In this document: positions 1,920 to 54,444 of the stretch, piece by piece
How the letters are laid out: every line of letters begins with the position of its first letter
Position numbering within the stretch: position 1 is the first letter of the stretch
Source: Actinomycetota bacterium
GTDB lineage: Bacteria; Actinomycetota; Thermoleophilia; UBA2241
Assembly (NCBI GenBank): GCA_012514235.1
Contig: JAAZAR010000140.1
Location: forward strand, 9,414 to 73,413
Length of the DNA: 64,000 nt
Reading direction: 5' to 3'
Made by a program: the position numbers and the translations under genes
Notes under the pieces: model-generated
The model's input: the letters and a program-made list of their open reading frames with translations, nothing else
The model's database searches: none
What the model was told of the DNA's origin: nothing

Positions 1920-2690
1920 ATGGACAGTTCCCTCGACGAGCTTCTGGCAGACGTCGCCGCCGGCCGGCTCAGCGCCGCCGAGGGGGCGGAGCGGCTGCGC
2001 CGCCTCGGGTACGTCTCCGTCGGCGACTTCGCCCGCCTCGACGTCTCTCGCGCGGCGCGCAAGGGCGTGCCCGAGGTGGTGTTCGCAGAGGGCAAGTCGG
2101 TCGCGCAGGTGGTCGCCATCACGCGCCGCTTCCTCGAGCATGCCGCCGCCGTCCTCTGCACGCGCGTCACGCAGGAGCAGGCGGCCGCCCTTGACGAGGC
2201 CCTCGAGGGCGGGGTGTCGCACGATCCACGCAGCCGCGTCGTGGTGGCTCGGCGGCCGGGCGCGCCGCCGCCGCAGGTGCGCGGCGCGGTCGGGGTCCTG
2301 GCCGCCGGCACCAGCGACGTGGCCGTCGCCGGCGAGGCCGTGGCCATGATCGACGCCATGGGCGTCGAGGCGCTCACCGCCTACGACGTCGGCGTCGCCG
2401 GTCTGCACCGGCTCTCGGCGCCGCTCGAGGAGATGCGCTCCGCCGGCGTCGGCGCCCTCGTGGTCGCCGCAGGCATGGAGGGCGCCCTCCCGTCGGTCGT
2501 CGCCGGCCTCGTCGAGGTCCCGGTCATCGGCCTTCCCACCTCGACGGGGTACGGGTACGGCGGGCGTGGCGAGGCTGCCCTCATGGGGATGCTCCAGAGC
2601 TGCAGCCCGGGGCTCGCCGTCGTGAACATCGACAACGGCGTCGGCGCGGGCGCGACCGCCGCGCTCATCGCTCGCGGGAGCGCGCGATGA
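1920..2690 (+). CDS. larB: LarB-type pyridinium-3,5-biscarboxylic acid mononucleotide synthase (PurE-like AIR carboxylase family)
   Basis: 256 aa. The N-terminal helical extension (LLADVAAGRLSAAEGAERLRRLGY) followed by a PurE-like fold (GVLAAGTSDVAVAGEA..., GMEGALPSVVAGL...PVIGLPTS.GYG) is the typical LarB architecture. Confidence 0.8.
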   Translation: MDSSLDELLADVAAGRLSAAEGAERLRRLGYVSVGDFARLDVSRAARKGVPEVVFAEGKSVAQVVAITRRFLEHAAAVLCTRVTQEQAAALDEALEGGVSHDPRSRVVVARRPGAPPPQVRGAVGVLAAGTSDVAVAGEAVAMIDAMGVEALTAYDVGVAGLHRLSAPLEEMRSAGVGALVVAAGMEGALPSVVAGLVEVPVIGLPTSTGYGYGGRGEAALMGMLQSCSPGLAVVNIDNGVGAGATAALIARGSAR

Positions 2691-3130
2691 CCAGCATCCC
2701 CTTCGTCCTGCGCGAGCACCGCGAGCAGCTTTGGCGCCGCTGGGCCGAGTCGCTGGGCGACGACGTCCCAGCCGACTACCGGGAGCTCATGAGCAGCCCG
2801 CTCGGCGAGCGGTTCGTGCGCGCCTTCGTCGAGGACCTGATCGGGTGGAGCGAGGCCGAGGAGTACGAGGCGCCGGCCCAGTTGCGGCAGGCCTGCGACC
2901 GCGTCGCTGCGGACGCCGGCAACCGCATGGCGCTCGGCTTCTCCGCCGTCGAGCTGACAGCCGCGCTGCAGACGCTGCGCGGCGCTGTCGTCGACGTCCT
3001 CCTCGATGCGCTGGTGCTGGGCGAGCTGCCCTCGTTCGCGGAGACGCTCGAGCAGGTCAAGGCGGTCGATCGGTTCATCGACCGTCTGGTCGCGGCGGTG
3101 CTCACGGCCACACCTGCGGAGACCCGCTGA
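2687..3130 (+). CDS. Helical sensor-like protein (RsbR N-terminal-domain-like), hypothetical
   Basis: 147-aa ORF whose ATG overlaps the larB stop (ATGA at 2687-2690), indicating translational coupling. All-helical composition. The resemblance to RsbR-type N-terminal domains is from memory and weak. No STAS domain follows. Confidence 0.55.
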   Translation: MTSIPFVLREHREQLWRRWAESLGDDVPADYRELMSSPLGERFVRAFVEDLIGWSEAEEYEAPAQLRQACDRVAADAGNRMALGFSAVELTAALQTLRGAVVDVLLDALVLGELPSFAETLEQVKAVDRFIDRLVAAVLTATPAETR

Positions 3131-3237
3131 CGGATGCCGCGGACGGCCAGGCTCCGCTGCGATCGGGACCCGGCCGGGCGGGTCCGGGTCATGCAGCAGG
3201 GGTTGCGGTGCCTCCTGCCCGCGACTAGGCTTCGCCC

Positions 3238-4308
3238 ATGCTGAGGCTGGCGCTCATCTTCGGCGGCCGCTCGGCCGAGCACGAGATCTCGCTGGCCTCC
3301 GCCCGCTTCGTCTTCTCGATGCTCGACCCGGACGCGTACGAGGTCGTACCGGTGGGCATCACGCCCGCCGGCAGGTGGGTGGTGCCGGAGGACTTCGACG
3401 CCGCCACGACGATCGGGCTCGATGCCGTGTCCACGCGGCCCGTGCGCCTGGTCTCCGACCCGGGCCGCCCCGGCCTCGCGTTCGCCGACGGGGAGTTCCT
3501 CCCGCTCGACTTCGCCTTCCCGATCATGCACGGCACGTTCGCCGAGGACGGCACCATCCAGGGACTCCTCGAGATGGCAGGACTCGCGTATGCCGGGTCA
3601 GGTGTCCTAGGGAGCTCGGTCGGCATGGACAAGGAGCTCATGAAGGCGGTGTTCGCGAACGCCGGACTGCCGCAGATGGACTATCTCGTGTTGCGCGACG
3701 ACGCGGCTACCGGCCCGGACGCGATCGCTGCCGTGGAGGAGCGCCTGCAGTACCCGGTCTTCGTGAAGCCGGCCAACCTCGGATCGAGCGTCGGCATGAC
3801 CAAGGCGCACGACAGGGGCGAACTGGGCCCGGCACTGGAGCTCGCCGCCACCCACGACCGCAAGACGGTCGTCGAGGCGGCGTGCGTCGGCCGCGAGCTC
3901 GAGTGCAGCCTTCTCGGCAACGCCGACTGCCGGGCGTCGGTGGTCGGCGAGGTCATCCCGGCCAACGAGTTCTACGACTACGAATCCAAGTACACCGAGG
4001 GCATGATGTCGTTCGCCATACCGGCGAAGGTGGACGACCGGCACACGGAGCGAGTCCGGGAGCTCGCGGTGCGGGCGTTCCACGCCGTCGACGCGAGCGG
4101 CTTCGCCCGCTGCGACTTCTTCCTCGAGACGGCCACGGACCGGGTGATCCTCAACGAGATCAACACCATCCCCGGCATGACGGCGATGAGCGGCTTCCCG
4201 CGGCTCTGGGCGGCATCAGGCATCGACGGTCACGCGCTGGTGGACGAGATCGTCCGGCTGGGGCTCGAGCGTCACGAGCGCCTCGCCCGGCTCAAGCTGG
4301 CGCGCTGA
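3238..4308 (+). CDS. ddl: D-alanine--D-alanine ligase
   Basis: 356 aa. Canonical Ddl N-terminus (LALIFGGRSAEHEISL.SA), FP.MHG..GEDG..QGLLE, and an ATP-grasp C-terminal region (EINT.PG.T..S..P). Confidence 0.93.
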   Translation: MLRLALIFGGRSAEHEISLASARFVFSMLDPDAYEVVPVGITPAGRWVVPEDFDAATTIGLDAVSTRPVRLVSDPGRPGLAFADGEFLPLDFAFPIMHGTFAEDGTIQGLLEMAGLAYAGSGVLGSSVGMDKELMKAVFANAGLPQMDYLVLRDDAATGPDAIAAVEERLQYPVFVKPANLGSSVGMTKAHDRGELGPALELAATHDRKTVVEAACVGRELECSLLGNADCRASVVGEVIPANEFYDYESKYTEGMMSFAIPAKVDDRHTERVRELAVRAFHAVDASGFARCDFFLETATDRVILNEINTIPGMTAMSGFPRLWAASGIDGHALVDEIVRLGLERHERLARLKLAR

Positions 4309-10654: not shown

Positions 10655-11875
10655 CTACTGCGCCCGCGGCACGGGTTTGAGACCCTCCGCGAAGGCGAGC
10701 AGTTCCTGGCGGGTGAGCCCGCCGGTGACGAAGACGGCCCGGCGCTCCCCGACCACGAACAACGACGGCCCTGACTCCTGGTACCAGGTCAGGGCCGTCT
10801 CGCCCGCGAAGGCGCCGTAGCCCAGCGTCGTCTCCCGGACGGAGAGTCTGCCGTTCGCAGCCGCCTCCTGCTGGGCCGGCATCCCGGACAGTCGCTCCAT
10901 CGTCGCGGACCCGACCTGCTCGACGGTGAACAGGGAGAGGCCTCGCGTGTAGAGCTCGAGGACGCCGGTCCCCTGCGAGTCGTCGGGCAGGTCCCACGGC
11001 CCGTCGTCGACCCGGCTGAGGGACCCGGCCGGGACGGTGGCGACGGCCCTGAGCTCGTAGCCGTCCGGCGCCAGGTCGGAGACGAGGACGTCGTAGCCTG
11101 CGTCGCGACCGGCGTCGACGGGAGTGGCCGCGTACTGCGGCGCGCTGGTGACGACCTCGGCGCCCGCTCCGGCAGCCGCGTCGGCGTCGTGGGCCGCGGC
11201 AGTCTGCGGCGGCGAGTCCCAGTCGATGTCGGCGGTGAACGTCTCGCCGCCGCTGCTGTACCAGGTGACGAGGCCGGTCTCCTGGTCGACGACGACATCG
11301 ACCTGCCGGTCGAGGCGCATGGACGCGCGCCAGACGGCCCGGTCGGCGTCTTTGCCCGGCTTGATCCCCACCGTGTCGTCGCCGTCCTCCACGGCCGTGC
11401 GGACGATCGCCGCCAGCCCCTGGTAGTCGAGCGGACTGCGCGTCGCGACCCTCCAGACGGGCGGCCACTGGCCGACGGTCCTGCGGCACCTGAGCCGGGC
11501 ACCCACACCGGCGCACGTGCTCTCCGTTCGCGTCGCCGTGGCGTACGCCGATCGCACGGGGACGAGACCGGGGGCGCCGGGTCCGGCCGGCGTCCGCGCC
11601 GAGCCGCCGGCGTCGCCGGATCGCACGGCGCTGAACTCGCCGTCGACGCCAGTCTCTCCGCCCGCCGCCGTCGAGCGCCACTGGTACGTGCCCTGTACGC
11701 CATCCACGAGAGGCGCCGTGACCGGCTCGTCCGAGCGCAGGAAGAGCATCCAGGCGACGGCGAAGACGACGGCCAGCGCGACAAGTGTCGCCGCGAAGCT
11801 CGGCGGGCGCCGGCTGAAGCGCGCGGCTCGCGCCCGCTGGCTGGGTCGCTGTGGTGACGTGAACACCGGCGTCAC
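10655..11875 (-). CDS. Membrane-anchored extracytoplasmic protein, LolA-like/DUF4367-like C-terminus (paralogous to the ectodomain of the anti-sigma factor at 22194..23669)
   Basis: Arg-rich cytoplasmic N-terminus, TM helix FAATLVALAVVFAVAWMLFL, and a C-terminal ...VFVTGGLTRQELLAFAEGLKPV resembling the end of the anti-sigma protein (...VSVAGDLTREELARIAGSLHPI). The start (GTG 11875) is uncertain. The 737-aa track ORF is an overextension. Confidence 0.55.
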   Translation of the reverse strand: MTPVFTSPQRPSQRARAARFSRRPPSFAATLVALAVVFAVAWMLFLRSDEPVTAPLVDGVQGTYQWRSTAAGGETGVDGEFSAVRSGDAGGSARTPAGPGAPGLVPVRSAYATATRTESTCAGVGARLRCRRTVGQWPPVWRVATRSPLDYQGLAAIVRTAVEDGDDTVGIKPGKDADRAVWRASMRLDRQVDVVVDQETGLVTWYSSGGETFTADIDWDSPPQTAAAHDADAAAGAGAEVVTSAPQYAATPVDAGRDAGYDVLVSDLAPDGYELRAVATVPAGSLSRVDDGPWDLPDDSQGTGVLELYTRGLSLFTVEQVGSATMERLSGMPAQQEAAANGRLSVRETTLGYGAFAGETALTWYQESGPSLFVVGERRAVFVTGGLTRQELLAFAEGLKPVPRAQ

Positions 11876-12335
11876 TCGGCGCCGATGGCGCTCCGGGCGG
11901 CCACGGCGCCGGTGCGCATGACGTGAAGCCGCATCGTGTGTGACCGTCCGTCCATGGGCCCAAAGCCTGCCCTTCCGGTCACCTGCGTGCAAGCGAACAG
12001 CTAACGAACTCCACCGTTCCGTACGTGTCTCGGGACTACGGAGGCCCACGGGCACAAGCGGAAACTCATACGGCTTCTGAGTGCGAATATCCCTGCAAAT
12101 CGCAGGAAAAAGCGGGTTGCAATCGGGCGCCGGTTGGCATTGGATGTTCGCCGAGTCAAGGCAGTGCCCCCGGCGCCCGAGCCCCGTGTATCCCTCATCC
12201 TTCCCCACTGCAAGGGATGTGCGAACATGGCCGGCGTTTCGGGGCCCGCAAGCACCCGCCGGTCTGCTGCCGGCGGGTGCCGCAAGCCCCGTCGGCGCCA
12301 GTCGCCGGCGGGGGTCACGACGGGGAAAGGACGCC

Positions 12336-14120
12336 GTGCACAGACAACTGGCACTCATCATCGCACTCTGCCTGGTGGCCGTTTCAGCGGTCGCCGGCCT
12401 GGCCTCGGCGAGGCCAGCAACGCTCCAGGACGTGGTGGAGAGGACGGTGACGGCCGGCCCACGAGGTACGCACGACCTCGTGCGAGCGGGCCAGACCGTC
12501 CTCGATGCAGCAGACGGGGTCTCCGCCACGATCCGAACGACGGCATACCAGGGGTTCTGTTGGAACGTGGAGAAGAGCGTCGACGTGTCGACGGTCTTCA
12601 CCGGTGCGTTCCGGCCAGACGCCCCCGCCGCGACGATCGCGGAGGTGCCGTCGTCGACGACGCCGGTCCCGGCCGCGGAGCCGGCGAAGCCCGCGACGCA
12701 GTCCGCGACTCCGGAGTCGATCGTCACGCTGACGCCGGCGCCGACCGCGGCAGCGTCGACCACCGTGTACGCGGCGGCCCAGGCCACGGCCCGCGCCGCC
12801 ACGGCGCCGGCTCTCACCGGCACCGCTTCGGCCGAGACCGCGGCCTCGAGCCATCCGGCCAGCCACATGAACGACAGCTCGACGTCGACCTATTGGCAGG
12901 CCTCCAGCTCCGCAGTACCGCAGAAGGTCACCATCGACCTCGGGTCGCCGAAGGCCGTCAGCGCCTCCAACGTGTCCTGGCGAGTGAACGGCGCCGTCCA
13001 CTTCCGTGTCTTCGGAAGCAACGACCAGCGGGCGTGGCGTGAACTCGCCAACTGCGACGGCAACCGGCTCGCCACCACGAGCACGGCGATCTCCGGGACG
13101 TGGCGGTACGTGCGCATGCGCATCGGCTACGTCGCCTCCGGGTCCGCCGGCATCTACGACTGGAAGGTCTACGGCACGGCGACGGCGTCGCCGTCTCCGA
13201 CCGCGACGCCCAAGCCGACCGCGACACCGACGCAGACCGCGACGCCCAAACCGACCGCGACACCGACGTCGGGGTCCTCGGCGAGCTACACGACGATGAC
13301 CAACGCCAAGCTCCAGTCAGGCACGTCCTCGGCACCGCGCGTCTACGAGAACATCATCTTCAAGGGCGGCAGCAGCACCACCGGCGTCCTGCACATCAAC
13401 TACAACCTGCACGACGTGGTCCTGCGCAACTGCATCATCGATACCGGCCCGCAGAACGGCTGGACCATCAACACGAACGACTCGGTGAGCGTGTACAACA
13501 TCCGCGTCGAGGGGCTCACCATCCGCCCCCAGCCGCGCATGGGCCTTGAGTTCACCGACCGCACCTACTCGGGGCGCAGCACCAACAACTGGCGCTACCT
13601 GACCCTCAACAACGTGACCGTGGAGCCCTCGGGCTCGGAGGCGGTCTCGTTCTGCTCGACCGCCATGGGCAACGCCTACACCACTGTGAAGGACATGGTG
13701 ATCGAGGGGTCGGGCACCCGTCCGGACCTCTACAGCTGGGGCCAGGGCTTCGAGATCAACAAGGCCAAGGGGATCACGGTCGACGGCCTTACCATCAGGC
13801 AGACGAGGGGCTCGGCATTCAACCTGCAGGGTCCCTCCTCGTCGACCAACATGATGTGGAAGTTCACTCGTGTCAACGCCGACATGAGCGTGCGTGACTC
13901 CCAGCAGACGCAGAGCATGAGCACTACCTCGCAGGTCGTGTACTGCAAGAACGCCACCGGCTGGAGCTTCTCCGGGCGCGTGGTGGCCACCGTCTCCGAC
14001 TGCGGCTATCTCGACAACGTGAAGGGCGCTACGTTCACGGGCACGAGCTGGACCCGCGTCGGCGGCACGGCGCGGGTCCTGCAGGCGAACGGCAGCAGCG
14101 GCAACATCGGGCTGCCGTGA
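12336..14120 (+). CDS. Secreted protein: F5/8-type-C (discoidin) carbohydrate-binding domain, Pro/Thr linker, right-handed beta-helix domain
   Basis: GTG 12336 with GGAAAGGA upstream and signal peptide LALIIALCLVAVSAVAGLASA. Discoidin-like segment (STYWQA...KVTIDLG...WRYVRMRI...IYDWKVYG). TATPKPTATPTQ linker. The C-terminal part has repetitive N/G/T-rich beta-helix-like turns. Confidence 0.8.
   Translation: MHRQLALIIALCLVAVSAVAGLASARPATLQDVVERTVTAGPRGTHDLVRAGQTVLDAADGVSATIRTTAYQGFCWNVEKSVDVSTVFTGAFRPDAPAATIAEVPSSTTPVPAAEPAKPATQSATPESIVTLTPAPTAAASTTVYAAAQATARAATAPALTGTASAETAASSHPASHMNDSSTSTYWQASSSAVPQKVTIDLGSPKAVSASNVSWRVNGAVHFRVFGSNDQRAWRELANCDGNRLATTSTAISGTWRYVRMRIGYVASGSAGIYDWKVYGTATASPSPTATPKPTATPTQTATPKPTATPTSGSSASYTTMTNAKLQSGTSSAPRVYENIIFKGGSSTTGVLHINYNLHDVVLRNCIIDTGPQNGWTINTNDSVSVYNIRVEGLTIRPQPRMGLEFTDRTYSGRSTNNWRYLTLNNVTVEPSGSEAVSFCSTAMGNAYTTVKDMVIEGSGTRPDLYSWGQGFEINKAKGITVDGLTIRQTRGSAFNLQGPSSSTNMMWKFTRVNADMSVRDSQQTQSMSTTSQVVYCKNATGWSFSGRVVATVSDCGYLDNVKGATFTGTSWTRVGGTARVLQANGSSGNIGLP
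13199..13270 (+). repeat. Two tandem 36-bp copies encoding the TATPKPTATPTQ linker
   Basis: gaccgcgacgcccaagccgaccgcgacaccgacgca / gaccgcgacgcccaaaccgaccgcgacaccgacgtc. There are 3 mismatches over 36 nt. Confidence 0.85.
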
Positions 14121-14354: not shown

Positions 14355-15011
14355 TCAGAGGATCGGTCCGAGCTCGGTCCATCCGGACGTGAGCTTCACC
14401 TTCAGCGTGAATCCGGTCGCCGGGCGTGCGTAGCTGTAGTCTCCCAGGCTCGCCCCGGCGGTCATGGCGGAGCCGGTCCACGGGTTGCGCGGCCAGACGT
14501 AGGCAGGGGAGGCGAAGGTGGTCTGGTCCAGCGTCTCCGGATACGTGTCGTGCTGCAGGTAGTAGGTCGTGAGGTAGCGCTGCAGCAGGAGCAGATTGTG
14601 CTTGCTCGCCGTGTTGCGCTCGGCTTTGAACCACGCGGGCATCGCGCTCTTCAGCACGAACTTGCCCTTGGAGAGGTGCATCGTGAGCCGGTAGCTCCGG
14701 CCGTCGCTGCCGAGGGCGTAGGTGTAGGTGCCGCGCGAGCTCCCCGGGCCCATGACCTTGCCGGTCCAGGGGTTGGCCGGCCAGATGATTGTGGAGTTGG
14801 GCAGCCCACCCCCCTTCTTCACCATCGACTTGGGCGGGTAGACGAACTGGTGGGCCTGGCCGTAGGTGTTGATGGAGCTCTGGATGAGGAGCCCGCCGGC
14901 CTGGACCTGCTTGTCCACGAAGCTGACGGCGTCGGCGCGCGGAGCCGCGGCGGCGAGGGTCAGGGCGAGGGCGACGGTCGACAGGACGACGAAGAGCCGG
15001 CGTCTGGTCAC
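14355..15011 (-). CDS. Secreted protein with two pseudopilin-globular-domain-like modules (family member P1)
   Basis: GTG start with AGGAGG 5 nt upstream and signal peptide MTRRRLFVVLSTVALALTLAAAAPRADA. Two modules end in IIWPANPWTGKVMGPGSSRGTYTYALGSDGRSYRLTMHL and YVWPRNPWTGSAMTAGASLGDYSYARPATGFTLKVKL. Confidence 0.8.
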   Translation of the reverse strand: MTRRRLFVVLSTVALALTLAAAAPRADAVSFVDKQVQAGGLLIQSSINTYGQAHQFVYPPKSMVKKGGGLPNSTIIWPANPWTGKVMGPGSSRGTYTYALGSDGRSYRLTMHLSKGKFVLKSAMPAWFKAERNTASKHNLLLLQRYLTTYYLQHDTYPETLDQTTFASPAYVWPRNPWTGSAMTAGASLGDYSYARPATGFTLKVKLTSGWTELGPIL

Positions 15012-15032
15012 GGGAGCCTCCTGTGGCGGTGA

Positions 15033-15959
15033 TCAGTCGGGGGAGCCGGCGCCGCGCGCCGGCGCCGCAGGCGACGGCGCGGTGCCTCCGGCCTCGTACT
15101 CCCCCGAGTGAAGATGGACGGTGAGCGTGTAGGCGCCGGCAGCGCCGGCGGCATACGTGTAGGTGCCGGGCACGGTGCCGGGCGCCATGGGGCCGCCGCT
15201 GGCGGGGTCGAGCGGCCAGTCCGTGTGGGCGGCGCCGACCGCCGCGGCCGGCGCCATCTCGACGGCGCTCGGGAGCGCACCGGCGTGCTGGAGCGACCAC
15301 TGGTCGACGTAGCCTCGCAGGATGCGGCCGTTTCGTCTGACGATCTCGTCCTCGAGGCTGATGAGCAGCTGCTGCCAGGGAGTGGCCACCACGGTGCCGG
15401 TCAGGACGTAGTCTCCCTTGAGTGCCCGATGCAGCCGCAGCGTGTACGACCTCCGGTCTGAGGTGACCGAGTAGGAGAACGACCCCCGATCGCGGCGCTG
15501 CGTCATGGCGCGGTGGTCCCAGGGGTTGCTGGGCCAGTAGCGGCGACGGGGCTCCTGGCCCACGGCGCCGTCCGACTCGATCGCGGACGGCAGAGGATAC
15601 CGGCCGTCGTGCGCGGCGGCGTAGTCCTCGATGTACTGGCGGATGAGGTTGATGCCCTCCTCGCTGCGGTGGTCGTAAGCCCGCATGATGGTGCGTGGCA
15701 TGCCCCCTCTGAGCACGATGGTGCCGCCGTTCAGGTAGCCGACGAGGCGGTAGCGACGCCTGTCCGGCGTCACGGTGTACCGGTAGTGGCCGCGGCCCGT
15801 GCCCGGACGCAGGTCCTGGCCCGTCCAGGGGTCGTCCGGCCACAGCCGGCTCCCGGCGAGGCGGCCTGGCTGGATCGACGCCCGGCGCGGATATACGAAG
15901 TAGCGCTCGGCCCCGGCGCGGTCGATGAGGCCGCGCAGCGCGAGGACGGCCGCCCTCAT
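15033..15959 (-). CDS. Protein with three pseudopilin-globular-domain-like modules (family member P2). A signal-peptide-coding extension continues in frame to about 16073 without a canonical start.
   Basis: Modules: LWPDDPWTGQDLRPGTGRGHYRYTVTPDRRRYRLVGYL; YWPSNPWDHRAMTQRRDRGSFSYSVTSDRRSYTLRLH; DWPLDPASGGPMAPGTVPGTYTYAAGAAGAYTLTVHL. The first ATG is at 15959. Upstream in frame the sequence encodes TTRRITRLTLILAALLLAALCAGAVTSAPARAA. Confidence 0.75.
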   Translation of the reverse strand: MRAAVLALRGLIDRAGAERYFVYPRRASIQPGRLAGSRLWPDDPWTGQDLRPGTGRGHYRYTVTPDRRRYRLVGYLNGGTIVLRGGMPRTIMRAYDHRSEEGINLIRQYIEDYAAAHDGRYPLPSAIESDGAVGQEPRRRYWPSNPWDHRAMTQRRDRGSFSYSVTSDRRSYTLRLHRALKGDYVLTGTVVATPWQQLLISLEDEIVRRNGRILRGYVDQWSLQHAGALPSAVEMAPAAAVGAAHTDWPLDPASGGPMAPGTVPGTYTYAAGAAGAYTLTVHLHSGEYEAGGTAPSPAAPARGAGSPD

Positions 15960-16214
15960 CTCCTCGTTCGGAGACGCCGCGCGGGCGGGCGCCGAGGTGA
16001 CAGCGCCCGCGCAGAGCGCCGCGAGCAGCAGGGCGGCGAGGATGAGCGTGAGTCGGGTGATGCGTCTCGTCGTGGCCCCCTTCTTCCTCTCCCAGTGTCA
16101 TCGGGCGCTCCGCTCCGGTCAACCGCAGGCGCCGCCGAGCCACGTCTGCTGCTACGATTCGCGACGAGCGTCGTGCAGCCTGCAGCGCTCGTGGATGGAA
16201 GCGAAGGGGGACAC

Positions 16215-17600
16215 GTGGAGACCAGGATCCCGACCCGGATGGGCGACGGCTACATGGTCGAGATGACGCCCAGCGAGCTGCGCGCGGACATCGAGGCCGC
16301 GACGGAGGAGGCGGCCCGCAAGGCGGGCTGCGCGCCGCTCGCCCAGGACGAGCTCGACCACCTGCTGGACATCTATGCCTCGCGTGCGGCGTTCACAGCC
16401 GTCGACATCGGGGACCAGGTGGTCCTCAGCTGCGACGGCGGCGGCAGCAAGATGACGGGCACCGACCTGCTCGATCTTCTCGAGAGCGAGCAGCGGCTGG
16501 GGCAGGACATCCTCGAGCTCTGGCACATCGAGTACAGCTACAAGGCGATCAAGACGATCCTGCCCTTCCAGCAGCAGGTGATGCAGAACGTCCAGCTCAT
16601 GTGCACGGCGCCGGTGCAGTACGGGGCGCAGCCCAACCTGGCCTTCTACAGCAAGCCCGACGGACCGGCGGAGAACTGGTTCGAGCTGCTGCCGCGCGGA
16701 GAGATCGCTGCCGCCCGCGCGGCCATCGAGGAGGCCATGGACCTCGCCACCAAGGACTTCATCTACGTGGGCGAGGGCATGCTGGACACCGGCGCCGACG
16801 GCATGGACTTCGACACCACCGGCGGCGCCGGCGACGCCGACTTCTTCAGCACCCTGCGCGCCGTGAAGCACCTGCGCGGGAAGTACCCCGACGCCGGCAT
16901 CGAGGTCGGGATGGCCGGCGAGTTCGTGATCGGCGTGCACGGGGAGCTGGAGTGGGACGGCCGCCGGCTGGCCGGCCTGTGGCCGGCGGCCCAGGTGCAG
17001 GTCTGCCAGGACGCCGGCGCGACGATCTACGGGCCGGCCGTCAACATCCGCACCGGCAAGAGCTGCGCCTGGAACGCTGCGTACGCGATCACCGTGTGCA
17101 AGCCCGCCATGGAGGTGGCGCGCATCCCCGTGCACCCCAACGTGGGCGAGGGCGTCGGCGGCGTGCCCGTGAACGGGTACCCGCCCGAGGACGCCGCGTC
17201 GCGGGCCGCCAAGGCGCACGTCGACATCCTGAAGTGCGACGGGTTGTAGGTGGGCTCGGGTGACTCCAGAGGCATGGACGTCACCCACGCGCTCGCCGCG
17301 GGCATGGGCGGAGTGCGCACGGCCGGAGACCTGGTCGCGCGCATGCAGATGTCCCGCGGGATGCGCCTCCCGGAGGCCAAGAGCTACGTCGCGGACAGAC
17401 TGGGCTGCACGGTCCGCGACCTCAGCGACAGTTACGCGATGGAGCAGATCCGCGGCGAGAAGGGCCTGGGGCGGATCCTCGACCACTCCAACCTGCACCC
17501 GGGCGAACCGAACGCCATCATGGCCAAGTTCCGGATCGCCGAGCTGCTGGACGTACCGATCAACTCGGTGGAGCGTTTTCGGGCGCTGGCGGGGGTGTAG
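16215..17600 (+). CDS. mtbB: Dimethylamine:corrinoid methyltransferase MtbB homologue. One reading frame with an internal in-frame UAG (candidate pyrrolysine codon) at 17247-17249.
   Basis: Track ORFs 15513..17249 and 17250..17600 share a frame and are separated only by TAG. From GTG 16215 the joined product is 461 aa. It carries MtbB-family motifs on both sides of the UAG (RMGDG, HIEYSYK, FDTTGGAGD, EVGMAGE, LAGLWP, KCDGL-UAG-VGSGD, AGDLVARM, EAKSYVADRLG, PINSVERF). Confidence 0.8.
17247..17249 (+). other. In-frame amber codon (putative Pyl recoding site) inside mtbB
   Basis: ...AAG TGC GAC GGG TTG TAG GTG GGC TCG GGT GAC TCC... The frame stays open for 116 more family-conserved codons. Confidence 0.75.
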
Positions 17601-18102
17601 CGGCCGGCGTGGCAGGCGGCCCTCCGCGCACGATGAGCCACGCCACGAGCGCCGCGGCGAGGCCGATCGGCACCAGGAGGACGGCGACGAGCGTGGTCAG
17701 GTACATGCCCACGCCGGGGTCGAAGAAGCCGATCGAGTCGGCCGCGTCCTGCGCGACGCCGAAGGCGACGACGCCGCACGCGGCCACCAGCACGCCGAGC
17801 AGGATGGAGGACCGGCGCGGCCGGGTGAGCAGCATCGCCAGCCCGGCCGCCAGCACGACGACCGCGACCGCCAGTGCCGGCGTGCCCCACGCGGTGTCCA
17901 GCACGCCGTTCAGCTCGCCGCCCTGCGACAGGCTGAAGTTGACCCAACCCGGGCCGTCGTCGTTCGCCCACGGCAGGAAGACGGCCCCGACCAGGGTGCC
18001 CCCGGCGACGAGCGTGAGGACGGCGTCGCCCGTCCAGTCGCGGCGCAGGCGGCGGGGGTCCCTCAGTCTGTCGGGCCGCTTCATGCCACCAGTATCGCTC
18101 AT
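17560..18102 (-). CDS. Hypothetical multi-pass membrane protein
   Basis: 180 aa with 4 predicted TM helices (AVLTLVAGGTLVGAVFL, ALAVAVVVLAAGLAMLL, ILLGVLVAACGVVAFGV, LTTLVAVLLVPIGLAAALVAWLIV). The 3' end overlaps the mtbB 3' end by 41 nt (convergent). ATG 18084 is an alternative, preceded by GATACT-N6. Confidence 0.55.
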   Translation of the reverse strand: MSDTGGMKRPDRLRDPRRLRRDWTGDAVLTLVAGGTLVGAVFLPWANDDGPGWVNFSLSQGGELNGVLDTAWGTPALAVAVVVLAAGLAMLLTRPRRSSILLGVLVAACGVVAFGVAQDAADSIGFFDPGVGMYLTTLVAVLLVPIGLAAALVAWLIVRGGPPATPAATPPPAPENAPPS

Positions 18103-18185
18103 GCGGCCGCGAGCTTGTACTGTGAGAAGGCCTTGAGGCAGCAGGGAGCGCTGCCGATACGGTGGGCAGCGACCCTGGGAGGCAG

Positions 18186-18572
18186 ATGATGAAGCGGACC
18201 ACGGCTGCGGCGCTGATCGCCCTGCTGGCGCTGGGCGCCGTCGCCGCGCTCGCCGGTTGCGGCCTGCGGGAGCAGGCGGTGGAGAACACCACCGGCAAGA
18301 TCGACGTGGCCAAAGACGCGACCGTCAAGGCGCAGCTGGTGATGATCAAGACCGGCATCGATGCGCAGATCGCGACCACCGGCGCCGCTCCGGCCGACGC
18401 CTCGCAGGCGACCCTCGGCGGTCTGGTCGACCCATGGCCGACCAACCCCTTCACCGGCGAGCCGATGCGCGAGGGTGAGGCTCCCGGCGACTACACGTAC
18501 AGCCCGGGAGCAGGCACGTCGTACACGCTCGTGGTGCATCTCTCCGACGGCACGACGTCCGCCGCCCCATGA
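18186..18572 (+). CDS. Lipoprotein with one pseudopilin-globular-domain-like module (family member P3)
   Basis: GGGAGG upstream and a lipobox, MMKRTTAAALIALLALGAVAALAGC. Helix KAQLVMIKTGIDAQIATTG, then LVDPWPTNPFTGEPMREGEAPGDYTYSPGAGTSYTLVVHLSDG. Confidence 0.8.
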   Translation: MMKRTTAAALIALLALGAVAALAGCGLREQAVENTTGKIDVAKDATVKAQLVMIKTGIDAQIATTGAAPADASQATLGGLVDPWPTNPFTGEPMREGEAPGDYTYSPGAGTSYTLVVHLSDGTTSAAP

Positions 18573-52463: not shown

Positions 52464-52593
52464 CGCTGCGAGGCTGATCGACGTAGCTCGTCGCGGTGGC
52501 GACGGCGCAGCCGACGGCCGGTGCCACCTGTGGTAGTCTGCGGGCTCGCTCGGCGCCGTGCCCGCGAGCCTGAACGACCGCAGGAGAGCGCGT

Positions 52594-54444
52594 ATGTCCC
52601 TACAACGGCTCGACCTCGACGACCGCCAGGCCGTCATGTACTCGGAGGGCGGCGTGTGCGCCGGCACGCAGGAGCTCGTCGAGAGCGCCGCCTTCGCCCG
52701 GGTCCTCGACCTGTACGTCGACCACCTCGAGTCGCACAACCCGCAGGTGCTCGACGAGCTCGGACTGGCCGCCGCCGCCTGGTCGGGACCGGGCGGGGCA
52801 GCCGCGGCCGATCAGGGCAAGGGCGACGCCGACCCGCGGCGCACCCGCCTGCTCGACCTCATCCGCCTGCTCGCCAACAACCCGCTCGAACGCGTGTCGG
52901 TCACGGCGTGCGCCCCGGGCGACCTGCTGGCGCGGCGCCGGCAGCTGCACGAGTTCGTCGAGGGACTGTACGACTTCTGGCGCCGCTGGGACCGGTTCCT
53001 CGTCCTGCGCGCGGAACAGCCGCCGGCCCCCGGCGACAAGCGCCCGCTGCGCGGCTTCACCGAGACCGTCGAGTCCCTGGCGCGGCTGGTTCGCGCCCTG
53101 TATCGCGACGTCGCCGAGAACATCACCGGCACCCGTCCGCGCGTGCTGCGCCAGGTCTCGGCCGGCGCCGAGGTCGGCGTGTTCGCGGTCAATCACAGAT
53201 GGCCGGTGCCGGCTCGCTACCGCGAGCTGCTCACCGGCGTCCCCTTCGTCCGGGACCTGCTGCTCTACCCGCCGCTGCTGCTCGATCCGCCGATGAACAC
53301 CCGCACCGGGCAGTTCGCGGAGGTCGACGAGAACCCGCTCGAGGGTCTGAAGCTGGAGCGCGAGGAGTGGCTCTGCTACCCGGCCCTCGTGGGGCGCACG
53401 ACGGTGTTCGTCTACTTCCACCGCCGCTTCATGGGCCTCGGGCTGAGCTTGGCCAACCTGTTCGAGGTGGCCTCGGACGAGGAGATCGCCGCCGGACCCG
53501 ACGCCGTGTACCTCTTCGGCGTCCCGCCGGCGTCGCTCGCCCGCTTCGGCGACCTGCCGACCGTGTTCCACGACGACCGCCGCAGCCGCCTGCTGGTGGC
53601 GGCGGTCCCGCTCGAGGACCGCTTCGGCTACTTCGGCTACCTCAAGAAGATGGTGCTCACGCTGCACAACGTCGCCGCCATGGACCGCGGCGTCATGCCC
53701 TTCCACGGCGCGTACGCCCGGCTGGTGCTCGACGACGGCAGCGCGGCGACCGTCCTCCTCATCGGCGACACCGCGACCGGCAAGAGCGAGACGCTCGAGG
53801 CGCTGCGCGTCGCCGGCGCCGGGCGCATCCGCGAGGTGCGCATCATCGCCGACGACATGGGTTCACTGGACGTCGGCTCCGGCGGCGAGCTGCTCGGGTT
53901 CGGCACCGAGATCGGCGCGTTCGTACGTCTCGACGACCTGCAGCAGGGCTACGCCTTCGGCCAGCTCGACCGCTCCATCATCATGAGCCCCAACAAGGTC
54001 AACGCCAGGGTGGTGCTCCCGGTCACCACGCTGGAGGACGTCCTGCGCGGCTACCCCGTGGACTTCCTCCTGTACGCCGACAACCACGAGGCGGTCGACG
54101 CGGAGCATCCGCTCGTCGACCGCTTCGCGGACGAGCAGGAGGCCCTGGCCGTGTTCCGCGACGGGGCCGCCATGAGCAAGGGGACGACCACGTCGACCGG
54201 CATCACCCACACGTACTTCGCCAACCCGTTCGGGCCGGCGCAGCGACGCGAGCAGCATGAGGCGCTGGCCGCGTCCACGTTCGCGGCGGCGTTCCGGGCC
54301 GGCGTGTTCGTCGGGCAGTTGCGGACGCAACTCGGACTGCCCGGGCAGGAGACCGCCGGCCCCGCCGCCGCCGCTCAAGCTCTGCTCGACCTCATCGCCG
54401 CGAAACGATGGGGCGGAGCTGATGGCGTTCCGCGATACGGGTAG
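52594..54444 (+). CDS. Large hypothetical protein with C-terminal HPr-kinase/PEPCK-like P-loop domain
   Basis: 616 aa from ATG 52594 with AGGAGA 6 nt upstream. The segment PFHGAYARLVLDDGSAATVLLIGDTATGKSETLEAL...IADDMG resembles the HprK/P core (HG...G.G.L..G.SG.GKSE.AL, .ADD). The N-terminal ~390 aa are unrecognised. TAG stop. Confidence 0.7.
   Translation: MSLQRLDLDDRQAVMYSEGGVCAGTQELVESAAFARVLDLYVDHLESHNPQVLDELGLAAAAWSGPGGAAAADQGKGDADPRRTRLLDLIRLLANNPLERVSVTACAPGDLLARRRQLHEFVEGLYDFWRRWDRFLVLRAEQPPAPGDKRPLRGFTETVESLARLVRALYRDVAENITGTRPRVLRQVSAGAEVGVFAVNHRWPVPARYRELLTGVPFVRDLLLYPPLLLDPPMNTRTGQFAEVDENPLEGLKLEREEWLCYPALVGRTTVFVYFHRRFMGLGLSLANLFEVASDEEIAAGPDAVYLFGVPPASLARFGDLPTVFHDDRRSRLLVAAVPLEDRFGYFGYLKKMVLTLHNVAAMDRGVMPFHGAYARLVLDDGSAATVLLIGDTATGKSETLEALRVAGAGRIREVRIIADDMGSLDVGSGGELLGFGTEIGAFVRLDDLQQGYAFGQLDRSIIMSPNKVNARVVLPVTTLEDVLRGYPVDFLLYADNHEAVDAEHPLVDRFADEQEALAVFRDGAAMSKGTTTSTGITHTYFANPFGPAQRREQHEALAASTFAAAFRAGVFVGQLRTQLGLPGQETAGPAAAAQALLDLIAAKRWGGADGVPRYG

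Follow-up and report, generated by a model that had tools for sequence, protein, structure and literature searches.

We analysed a 64,000-nt stretch of DNA (hereafter the window) from an uncultured member of the Thermoleophilia (Actinomycetota bacterium; assembly GCA_012514235.1, contig JAAZAR010000140.1, positions 9,414 to 73,413), in which a homologue of the methyltransferase gene mtbB contains an in-frame TAG at the place where the family encodes pyrrolysine (Pyl). From the sequence and the list of open reading frames (ORFs), one frame of 461 codons was identified at 16215-17600 on the forward strand, with the TAG at 17247-17249 as its sole interruption. Two listed forward-strand ORFs (15513..17249 and 17250..17600) share this frame and are divided by that TAG, which is preceded by ...KCDGL and followed by VGSGDSRGMDVT... 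in the translation. Translation from the GTG at 16215, a start consistent with those of the aligned homologues (M..I.TRMGDG), gives 344 amino acids, the TAG, 116 further amino acids, and a terminal TAG at 17598-17600, which corresponds to 461 residues if the internal TAG is decoded. No sigma-70 consensus promoter was found at 15900-18200, and a terminator scan was likewise without consensus sites. An earlier note on this DNA had described the same-frame ORF pair split only by the TAG, the 461-residue joined product, host-like codon usage after the TAG, and the motifs RMGDG, HIEYSYK, FDTTGGAGD, EVGMAGE, LAGLWP, AGDLVARM, and INSVERFR; all were recovered here, and the G+C content at third codon positions (GC3) after the TAG was 0.91, similar to that of other genes in the window (overall G+C content, 71%). 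The features are collected in Table 1.

Table 1. Features of the mtbB locus in the window and of the pyl gene cluster of L144, a relative carrying an orthologue of this mtbB.
Feature	Location	Strand	Support
Complete mtbB as recoded: GTG start, 344 codons, UAG (putative Pyl), 116 codons, terminal TAG	16215..17600	+	PF09505, TIGR02368
Purine-rich Shine-Dalgarno-like stretch GAAGGGGGA, 3 nt ahead of the GTG start	16203..16211	+	Read from sequence
N-terminal 344 codons, the truncated MtbB of gene callers	16215..17246	+	Database proteins of 344-356 aa stop exactly here
In-frame UAG, inferred pyrrolysine codon, residue 345	17247..17249	+	Homologues, family fragments, Rfam RF02509
C-terminal 116 codons, translated only upon UAG decoding	17250..17597	+	Conservation, dN/dS, GC3
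Match to Rfam RF02509 (PYLIS_2, pyrrolysine insertion sequence, mtbB)	17247..17346	+	58.9 bits (gathering score 36), E 4.5e-13, model positions 1-100 of 100
Short hairpin ACGGCCGG-AGAC-CUGGUCG, 72-92 nt past the UAG, helix 2 of RF02509	17319..17338	+	Pairing across 73 sequences
Terminal TAG, then in-frame TGA (17634-17636) 11 codons on, which would stop any read-through product	17598..17636	+	Sequence
pylSc	L144 cluster		TIGR02367, 320.7 bits
pylSn	L144 cluster		TIGR03912, 124.6 bits
pylB	L144 cluster		TIGR03910, 454 bits
pylC	L144 cluster		TIGR03909, 347 bits
pylD	L144 cluster		TIGR03911, 221 bits
MtbC-like corrinoid protein	L144 cluster		TIGR02370, 214 bits (cut-off 215.3)
tRNA-Pyl, anticodon CUA	L144 cluster		

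With X placed at the TAG, the joined product matched PF09505 (Dimeth_Pyl) at 510.3 bits (cut-off 25; E 5.5e-153) over profile positions 4-461 of 463. It also matched TIGR02368, the NCBI equivalog for MtbB, at 384.8 bits over positions 1-464 of 466, a small margin over the cut-off of 369.1. The gene product is a member of the MtbB (dimethylamine:corrinoid methyltransferase) family, with a match far beyond chance. The earlier note had proposed end-to-end colinearity with MtbB and an alignment to PF09505 as a check, and both profiles were indeed matched over nearly their whole length.

The position of the TAG was compared with that in homologues. Hundreds of homologous proteins were retrieved by a protein search; nearly all measured 344-346 aa, and all stopped at one and the same point. 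Automated annotation splits the gene in two, as the earlier note had expected. An exhaustive search of 1.8 billion cluster representatives gave members of the MtbB family of 353-356 aa (38-45% identity), which end at DG[LV], in the same column of the alignment. Among species-representative genomes, 79 mtbB loci were found; almost all belong to metagenome-assembled genomes (MAGs) that carry the label Thermoleophilia or Actinomycetota and come from soil, peat, and lake sediment. Their mtbB copies (45-97% identity) comprised orthologues of the window gene (78-97%), paralogues of about eight types (51-62%), and two Firmicute copies (45-47%). In every copy, orthologous or paralogous, a TAG stood at the homologous codon and was followed by approximately 116-130 open codons; it was never replaced by TGA or TAA. 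The first three positions of RF02509 aligned to the TAG of the window, and RF02509 also matched at every other mtbB TAG tested, although the score for the window was drawn mostly from conserved coding sequence. The homologous TAGs, the fragment ends at DG[LV], and the first position of RF02509 thus agree in placing the TAG in the Pyl column of the family, as the earlier note had claimed, and the UAG at 17247-17249 is almost certainly a pyrrolysine codon. The representative library also contained a full-length MtbB homologue of 463 aa (P0158; TIGR02368, 379 bits) that has no stop and carries Trp in the Pyl column. This protein may belong to a branch of the MtbB family that lacks Pyl, comparable to the MttB homologues without Pyl.

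The RNA structure downstream of the TAG was evaluated across 73 distinct sequences. Helix 2 of RF02509 was paired in 87% of cells, and the pair 17321/17336, in which both bases are at third codon positions, covaried (GC 28, CG 23, UG 11, UA 5, AU 1, unpaired 5). Compensatory changes at the hairpin were also found within the orthologues. A role of this hairpin in recoding is possible. Helix 1 was only 60% paired over the same sequences and was poorly supported. Synonymous-site conservation after the TAG, considered as a possible RNA signal, was not distinctive alone: the diversity was under the gene mean without being the minimum of the gene.

The frame after the TAG (approximately 116 aa) was intact in nearly all of about 50 orthologues, which were 84-96% identical in this segment, with the first 12 residues after the TAG invariant; their terminal stops were TAG or TGA. 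For 35 orthologues free of assembly frameshifts (595 pairs), the median pairwise ratio of nonsynonymous to synonymous substitution rates (dN/dS) was 0.151 for the 116 codons after the TAG versus 0.195 for the 344 codons before it. Relative to L001, a fragmentary MAG that is the closest relative (89-90% nucleotide identity), dN/dS was 0.13-0.14 in both segments. Purifying selection downstream of the TAG, for which the earlier note had advised a comparison of relatives, is as strong as upstream, and with the intact tail it favors functional read-through over a decaying remnant, as that note had argued.

The gene order of the mtbB neighborhood was kept in about 40 MAGs, with two secreted proteins upstream on the opposite strand; downstream come a small membrane protein, secreted proteins, a DAO-family oxidoreductase, and an alcohol dehydrogenase. 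MtbB was approximately 90% identical where its syntenic neighbors were 57-75% identical. As the order is kept and MtbB is more conserved than its neighbors, this mtbB copy is vertically inherited and strongly constrained, which speaks against both a pseudogene and a gene acquired recently by transfer. Two further features of the neighborhood were recorded. Three secreted proteins without Pfam matches flank mtbB on both sides (14355-16097 on the reverse strand and 18186-18572 on the forward strand), match one another, and are syntenic in approximately 40 MAGs. They share the repeated motif W-P-x-N/D-P-W/F-T-G-x-x-M-x-x-G-x-x-x-G-x-Y-x-Y, which resembles the DPWGNPY motif of type II secretion pseudopilins. 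A conserved 180-aa ORF without a Pfam match (17563-18102, reverse strand) is convergent with mtbB, overlaps its 3' end by approximately 40 nt, and is syntenic in most orthologous loci.

UAG usage in the window was examined from the stops of its 49 ORFs. TAG ends nine of them, that of mtbB included, and TGA ends 39. As TAG still serves as a stop, UAG is not reassigned, and the recoding is site-specific. Other abutting ORF pairs in the same frame were considered as recoding candidates and rejected: 18126/18573, 41051/42242, 32476/33037, and 14355/15033 are split by TGA and are separate genes, and 52537/54445 is split by TAG, yet its second ORF is a separate purC gene. The first ORF of the latter pair (52537-54444, forward strand) encodes a 635-aa protein upstream of purC with no Pfam match, a P-loop-like GDTATGKSE, and a faint NCBIfam match resembling PEP carboxykinase; beyond its terminal TAG lie 302 in-frame open codons that overlap the purC reading frame. 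Elsewhere in the window, long ORFs on opposite strands overlap at 10655-12889 (reverse) and 12081-14120 (forward); both have high GC3, and only the forward one has a domain match (F5/8 type C). The genes of the window are chromosomal housekeeping genes (purE, purD, purB, purA, purC, ddl, sodA, mscL, rsgA, dnaB, and rplI).

Genes for Pyl decoding were found in relatives. The pocket motif RPMLAPNLY of pyrrolysyl-tRNA synthetase (PylRS), encoded in GC-rich codons, gave 64 matches in the genome collection, mostly in Thermoleophilia MAGs carrying the mtbB orthologue. The PylSc proteins of the relatives were 50-57% identical over their full length to Desulfitobacterium hafniense PylSc, and TIGR02367 confirmed them independently (318-321 bits). 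One pyl cluster, that of L144, was annotated in full (Table 1), and L088, another relative with an orthologue, had pylSc, pylD, and pylT within the stretch examined. Across the relatives, pylD scored 198-221 bits, and the MtbC-like corrinoid protein scored 214-227 bits with TIGR02370 (cut-off 215.3). An MtbC-like protein adjoins pylSc in the relatives, and another sits in an island with mtbB and mttB; no methylcorrinoid:tetrahydrofolate methyltransferase or RamA was identified. Of the 54 assemblies with the orthologue (all MAGs under the label Thermoleophilia or Actinomycetota), at least 49 have pylSc, and at least 65 species-level assemblies labelled in this way carry it. The mtbB orthologue and pylSc lay on the same contig in ten cases, 90-285 kb apart in the nine with known positions, and this distance explains the absence of the cluster from a 64-kb window. 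ARAGORN found no tRNA-CUA in the 79 mtbB loci, where the pyl cluster does not adjoin mtbB, and tblastn with Methanosarcina mazei PylRS as the query found no PylRS in the first 82 loci.

Two further observations concern the pyl genes themselves. Within the L144 cluster (2057-2944, forward strand, and 2966-3349, reverse strand), TAG terminates pylSn as well as an uncharacterised radical-SAM gene next to it, so that genes enabling UAG read-through would themselves be extended when read-through is active. In addition, PylSc genes 55-70% identical to the Thermoleophilia one occurred in MAGs labelled Dehalococcoidales, Aminicenantes, Zixibacteria, and Thermodesulfobacteriota (L178, L185, L187, L257, L264, L266, L271, and L280), in which mis-binning is possible.

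Judged on the sequence comparisons above, the region very probably represents a functional Pyl-encoding gene of the MtbB family in the chromosome of an uncultured soil bacterium of the Thermoleophilia. Several observations weigh against this interpretation. ARAGORN detected no tRNA in the window, and tblastn with M. mazei PylRS found no PylRS there. Neither pylBCD nor a B12-binding protein was found in the window, no pylS was found in the fragmentary assembly of L001, and neither the window nor the orthologous loci have methyltransferase partner genes next to this mtbB copy. At the protein level, the clade of the window gene carries 15 invariant clade-specific substitutions at sites with 85-100% conservation among 44 other Pyl-MtbB copies, and the TIGR02368 score of the window product (384.8 bits) is the lowest of the Pyl copies sampled (paralogues, 407-429; a Firmicute copy, 470). 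As the window has no pyl genes, Pyl decoding in the source genome is deduced from the relatives. The search for pyl and corrinoid genes that the earlier note had called for was thus empty in the window and successful in orthologue-bearing relatives, where pylT, pylSn, pylSc, pylB, pylC, pylD, and an MtbC-like protein were found.

The low TIGR02368 score and the 15 substitutions make dimethylamine as the substrate an assumption. Pyl genes are abundant in these genomes: within 21 kb, L049 carries five mtbB and one mttB with TAG along with genes for a corrinoid protein and transporters; three copies of mtbB form a tandem array in L080; and in L147 an mttB with TAG lies directly upstream of the mtbB orthologue. 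The clade of the window gene forms a separate, "orphan" paralogue group, in which GDSRGM directly follows Pyl, versus GDP[LSV]GM in other copies. The product might therefore contain Pyl as proposed and yet have been neofunctionalised, as a paralogue, for a different methylated amine, with its corrinoid protein encoded elsewhere. This is a special case of the functional Pyl enzyme, so its likelihood is counted within that reading and not added to it, and we regard it as possible but unlikely. It draws on the separate paralogue group with its signature substitutions and GDSRGM, on the TIGR02368 score, on the unusual conservation of the clade relative to its neighbors, and on the five or more further mtbB paralogues per genome in methylamine islands with mttB, a corrinoid protein, and transporters, by which a canonical dimethylamine enzyme is probably already present. 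Nevertheless, the NCBI MtbB equivalog cut-off is still passed, Pyl, the preceding DG[LV], and the following AGDLVARM motif are retained, and the substrate cannot be read from the sequence. No solved MtbB relative was found in a sequence search of the PDB.

The methylamine island of L049 (1-21032 of contig CAVPVX010000007.1) also holds MttB-like fragments, a permease, ABC transporter genes, and regulators of the TetR and LuxR types. Its mtbB copies vary in the motif that follows Pyl (GVGDPLGM, GIGDPLGM, GTGDALGM, GSGDSFGM, and GAGDNHSQG).

A pseudogene, arising either from a nonsense mutation with a decaying tail or from loss of the pyl system in the source genome, would fit the lack of pyl genes in the window and in the fragmentary L001 assembly. 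It is very improbable, however, since the TAG is the ancestral state of the family and not a new mutation, the tail is intact with a GC3 of 0.91, dN/dS is 0.14 versus the closest relative and 0.15 across the clade, and the pyl cluster of the relatives, at 90-285 kb from mtbB, is not expected in a 64-kb window. Least credible is a split gene, in which products of 344 aa and 116 aa (the second from GTG 17250) would be made separately and would form an active assembly without pyrrolysine: a GTG directly follows the TAG in the window and gene callers predict two ORFs, but several orthologues have GTC or GTA, neither of them a start codon, directly after the TAG and paralogues have ATC, ATG, or GCN there, which makes a separately initiated 116-aa product unlikely, no stop other than TAG occurs at this site although 39 of the 49 window ORFs end in TGA, no Shine-Dalgarno sequence precedes 17250, and the lineage has kept a full pyl system.

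For a functional Pyl enzyme at this locus, the following mechanism can be proposed. Once the pyl genes are expressed, PylB, PylC, and PylD would make pyrrolysine from lysine, and the split synthetase PylSn/PylSc would charge it onto tRNA-Pyl (CUA). The charged tRNA would compete with release factor 1 at the UAG at 17247-17249, as it does in the Pyl-using bacteria Acetohalobium and Desulfitobacterium. Decoding, probably upon induction of the pyl genes, would yield the 461-residue enzyme, and termination would yield a truncated product of 344 residues. Pyl345 would bind and activate the methylamine. The Co(I) corrinoid of a small MtbC-like protein, whose gene lies elsewhere, would take up the methyl group, which would then presumably pass to tetrahydrofolate, as in other bacterial methylamine users. 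In this scheme, we infer the pyl genes of the source genome, Pyl as the inserted residue, the substrate, the methyl acceptor, and any part played by the hairpin.

Standard gene callers render such mtbB genes as two fragments or a pseudogene. As every homologue retrieved from the databases was cut short at about 344 aa, the methylamine metabolism of these abundant soil and peat actinobacteria is systematically under-called. With at least 65 assemblies carrying pylSc, usually together with several Pyl-encoding mtbB and mttB genes, Thermoleophilia is a substantial bacterial reservoir of pyrrolysine use, located in habitats where methylamines feed methane production. The lineage also offers PylRS/tRNA-Pyl pairs of high GC content and a set of diverged Pyl enzymes. 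More tentatively, the clade of the window gene could be an unrecognised, vertically inherited subfamily of Pyl-MtbB-like enzymes of soil and peat Thermoleophilia that has diverged near the active site (GDSRGM and the 15 substitutions) and uses a methylated amine other than dimethylamine. The subfamily would then belong to an expansion of paralogues, with at least six copies of Pyl-mtbB in each genome, that makes Thermoleophilia a major overlooked bacterial user of the 22nd amino acid.

Pyl use in this phylum has been reported before. Guo et al. (2022, PMC9630628) described PylRS genes in 81 bacterial genomes, two of them from Actinobacteria, and Ellenbogen et al. (2023, PMC10805028) reported expression of Pyl-encoding mtbB and mttB by Actinobacteriota MAGs of Stordalen Mire. 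The impression given in the earlier note that Pyl-dependent methyltransferases were undescribed for this kind of genome is therefore out of date, and the recoding is not the first of its type in the phylum. The Stordalen MAGs palsa_647, palsa_645, bog_752, and fen_672 were among our loci with the orthologue or pylSc. The consulted parts concern the same phylum and the same phenomenon as the window gene but do not name Thermoleophilia or describe the pyl cluster, the paralogue expansion, or the syntenic orphan paralogue, and no paper in the literature searched named Thermoleophilia in connection with pyrrolysine. The breadth of the Pyl system in Thermoleophilia, the paralogue expansion, and the syntenic, conserved, and divergent orphan subfamily appear to be new here. 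The species-representative genomes also contained 583 PylS-like stretches, a bacterial spread wider than the four phyla listed in the 2022 report (PMC9630628).

The window MtbB shares with MtbB1-3 of Methanosarcina the protein family, end-to-end colinearity, the UAG column, DG[LV]-O-[VI]G.GD, AGDLVARM, and the RF02509 match. It differs in its identity of only about 45% to the family representatives of 353-356 aa, in its bacterial host of 71% GC, in lacking adjacent mtbC, mtbA, ramA, and pyl genes, in having GDSRGM in place of GDP.GM after Pyl, and in its acceptor, which cannot be coenzyme M. Split PylSn/PylSc systems are found in bacteria such as D. hafniense, Acetohalobium arabaticum, and Bilophila. 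The relatives of the source genome resemble these bacteria in having separate pylSn and pylSc, pylBCD, a tRNA-Pyl similar to that of D. hafniense, and UAG still as a normal stop; unlike them, they are high-GC actinobacterial hosts of soil, peat, and lake sediment, and their pyl cluster lies 90-285 kb from this mtbB copy instead of forming one operon with it. The non-Pyl homologues (the MttB superfamily, e.g., MtgB, and P0158) belong to the same fold family, and P0158, which is colinear with the window protein, scores above the TIGR02368 cut-off, but it has Trp where the window gene keeps UAG.

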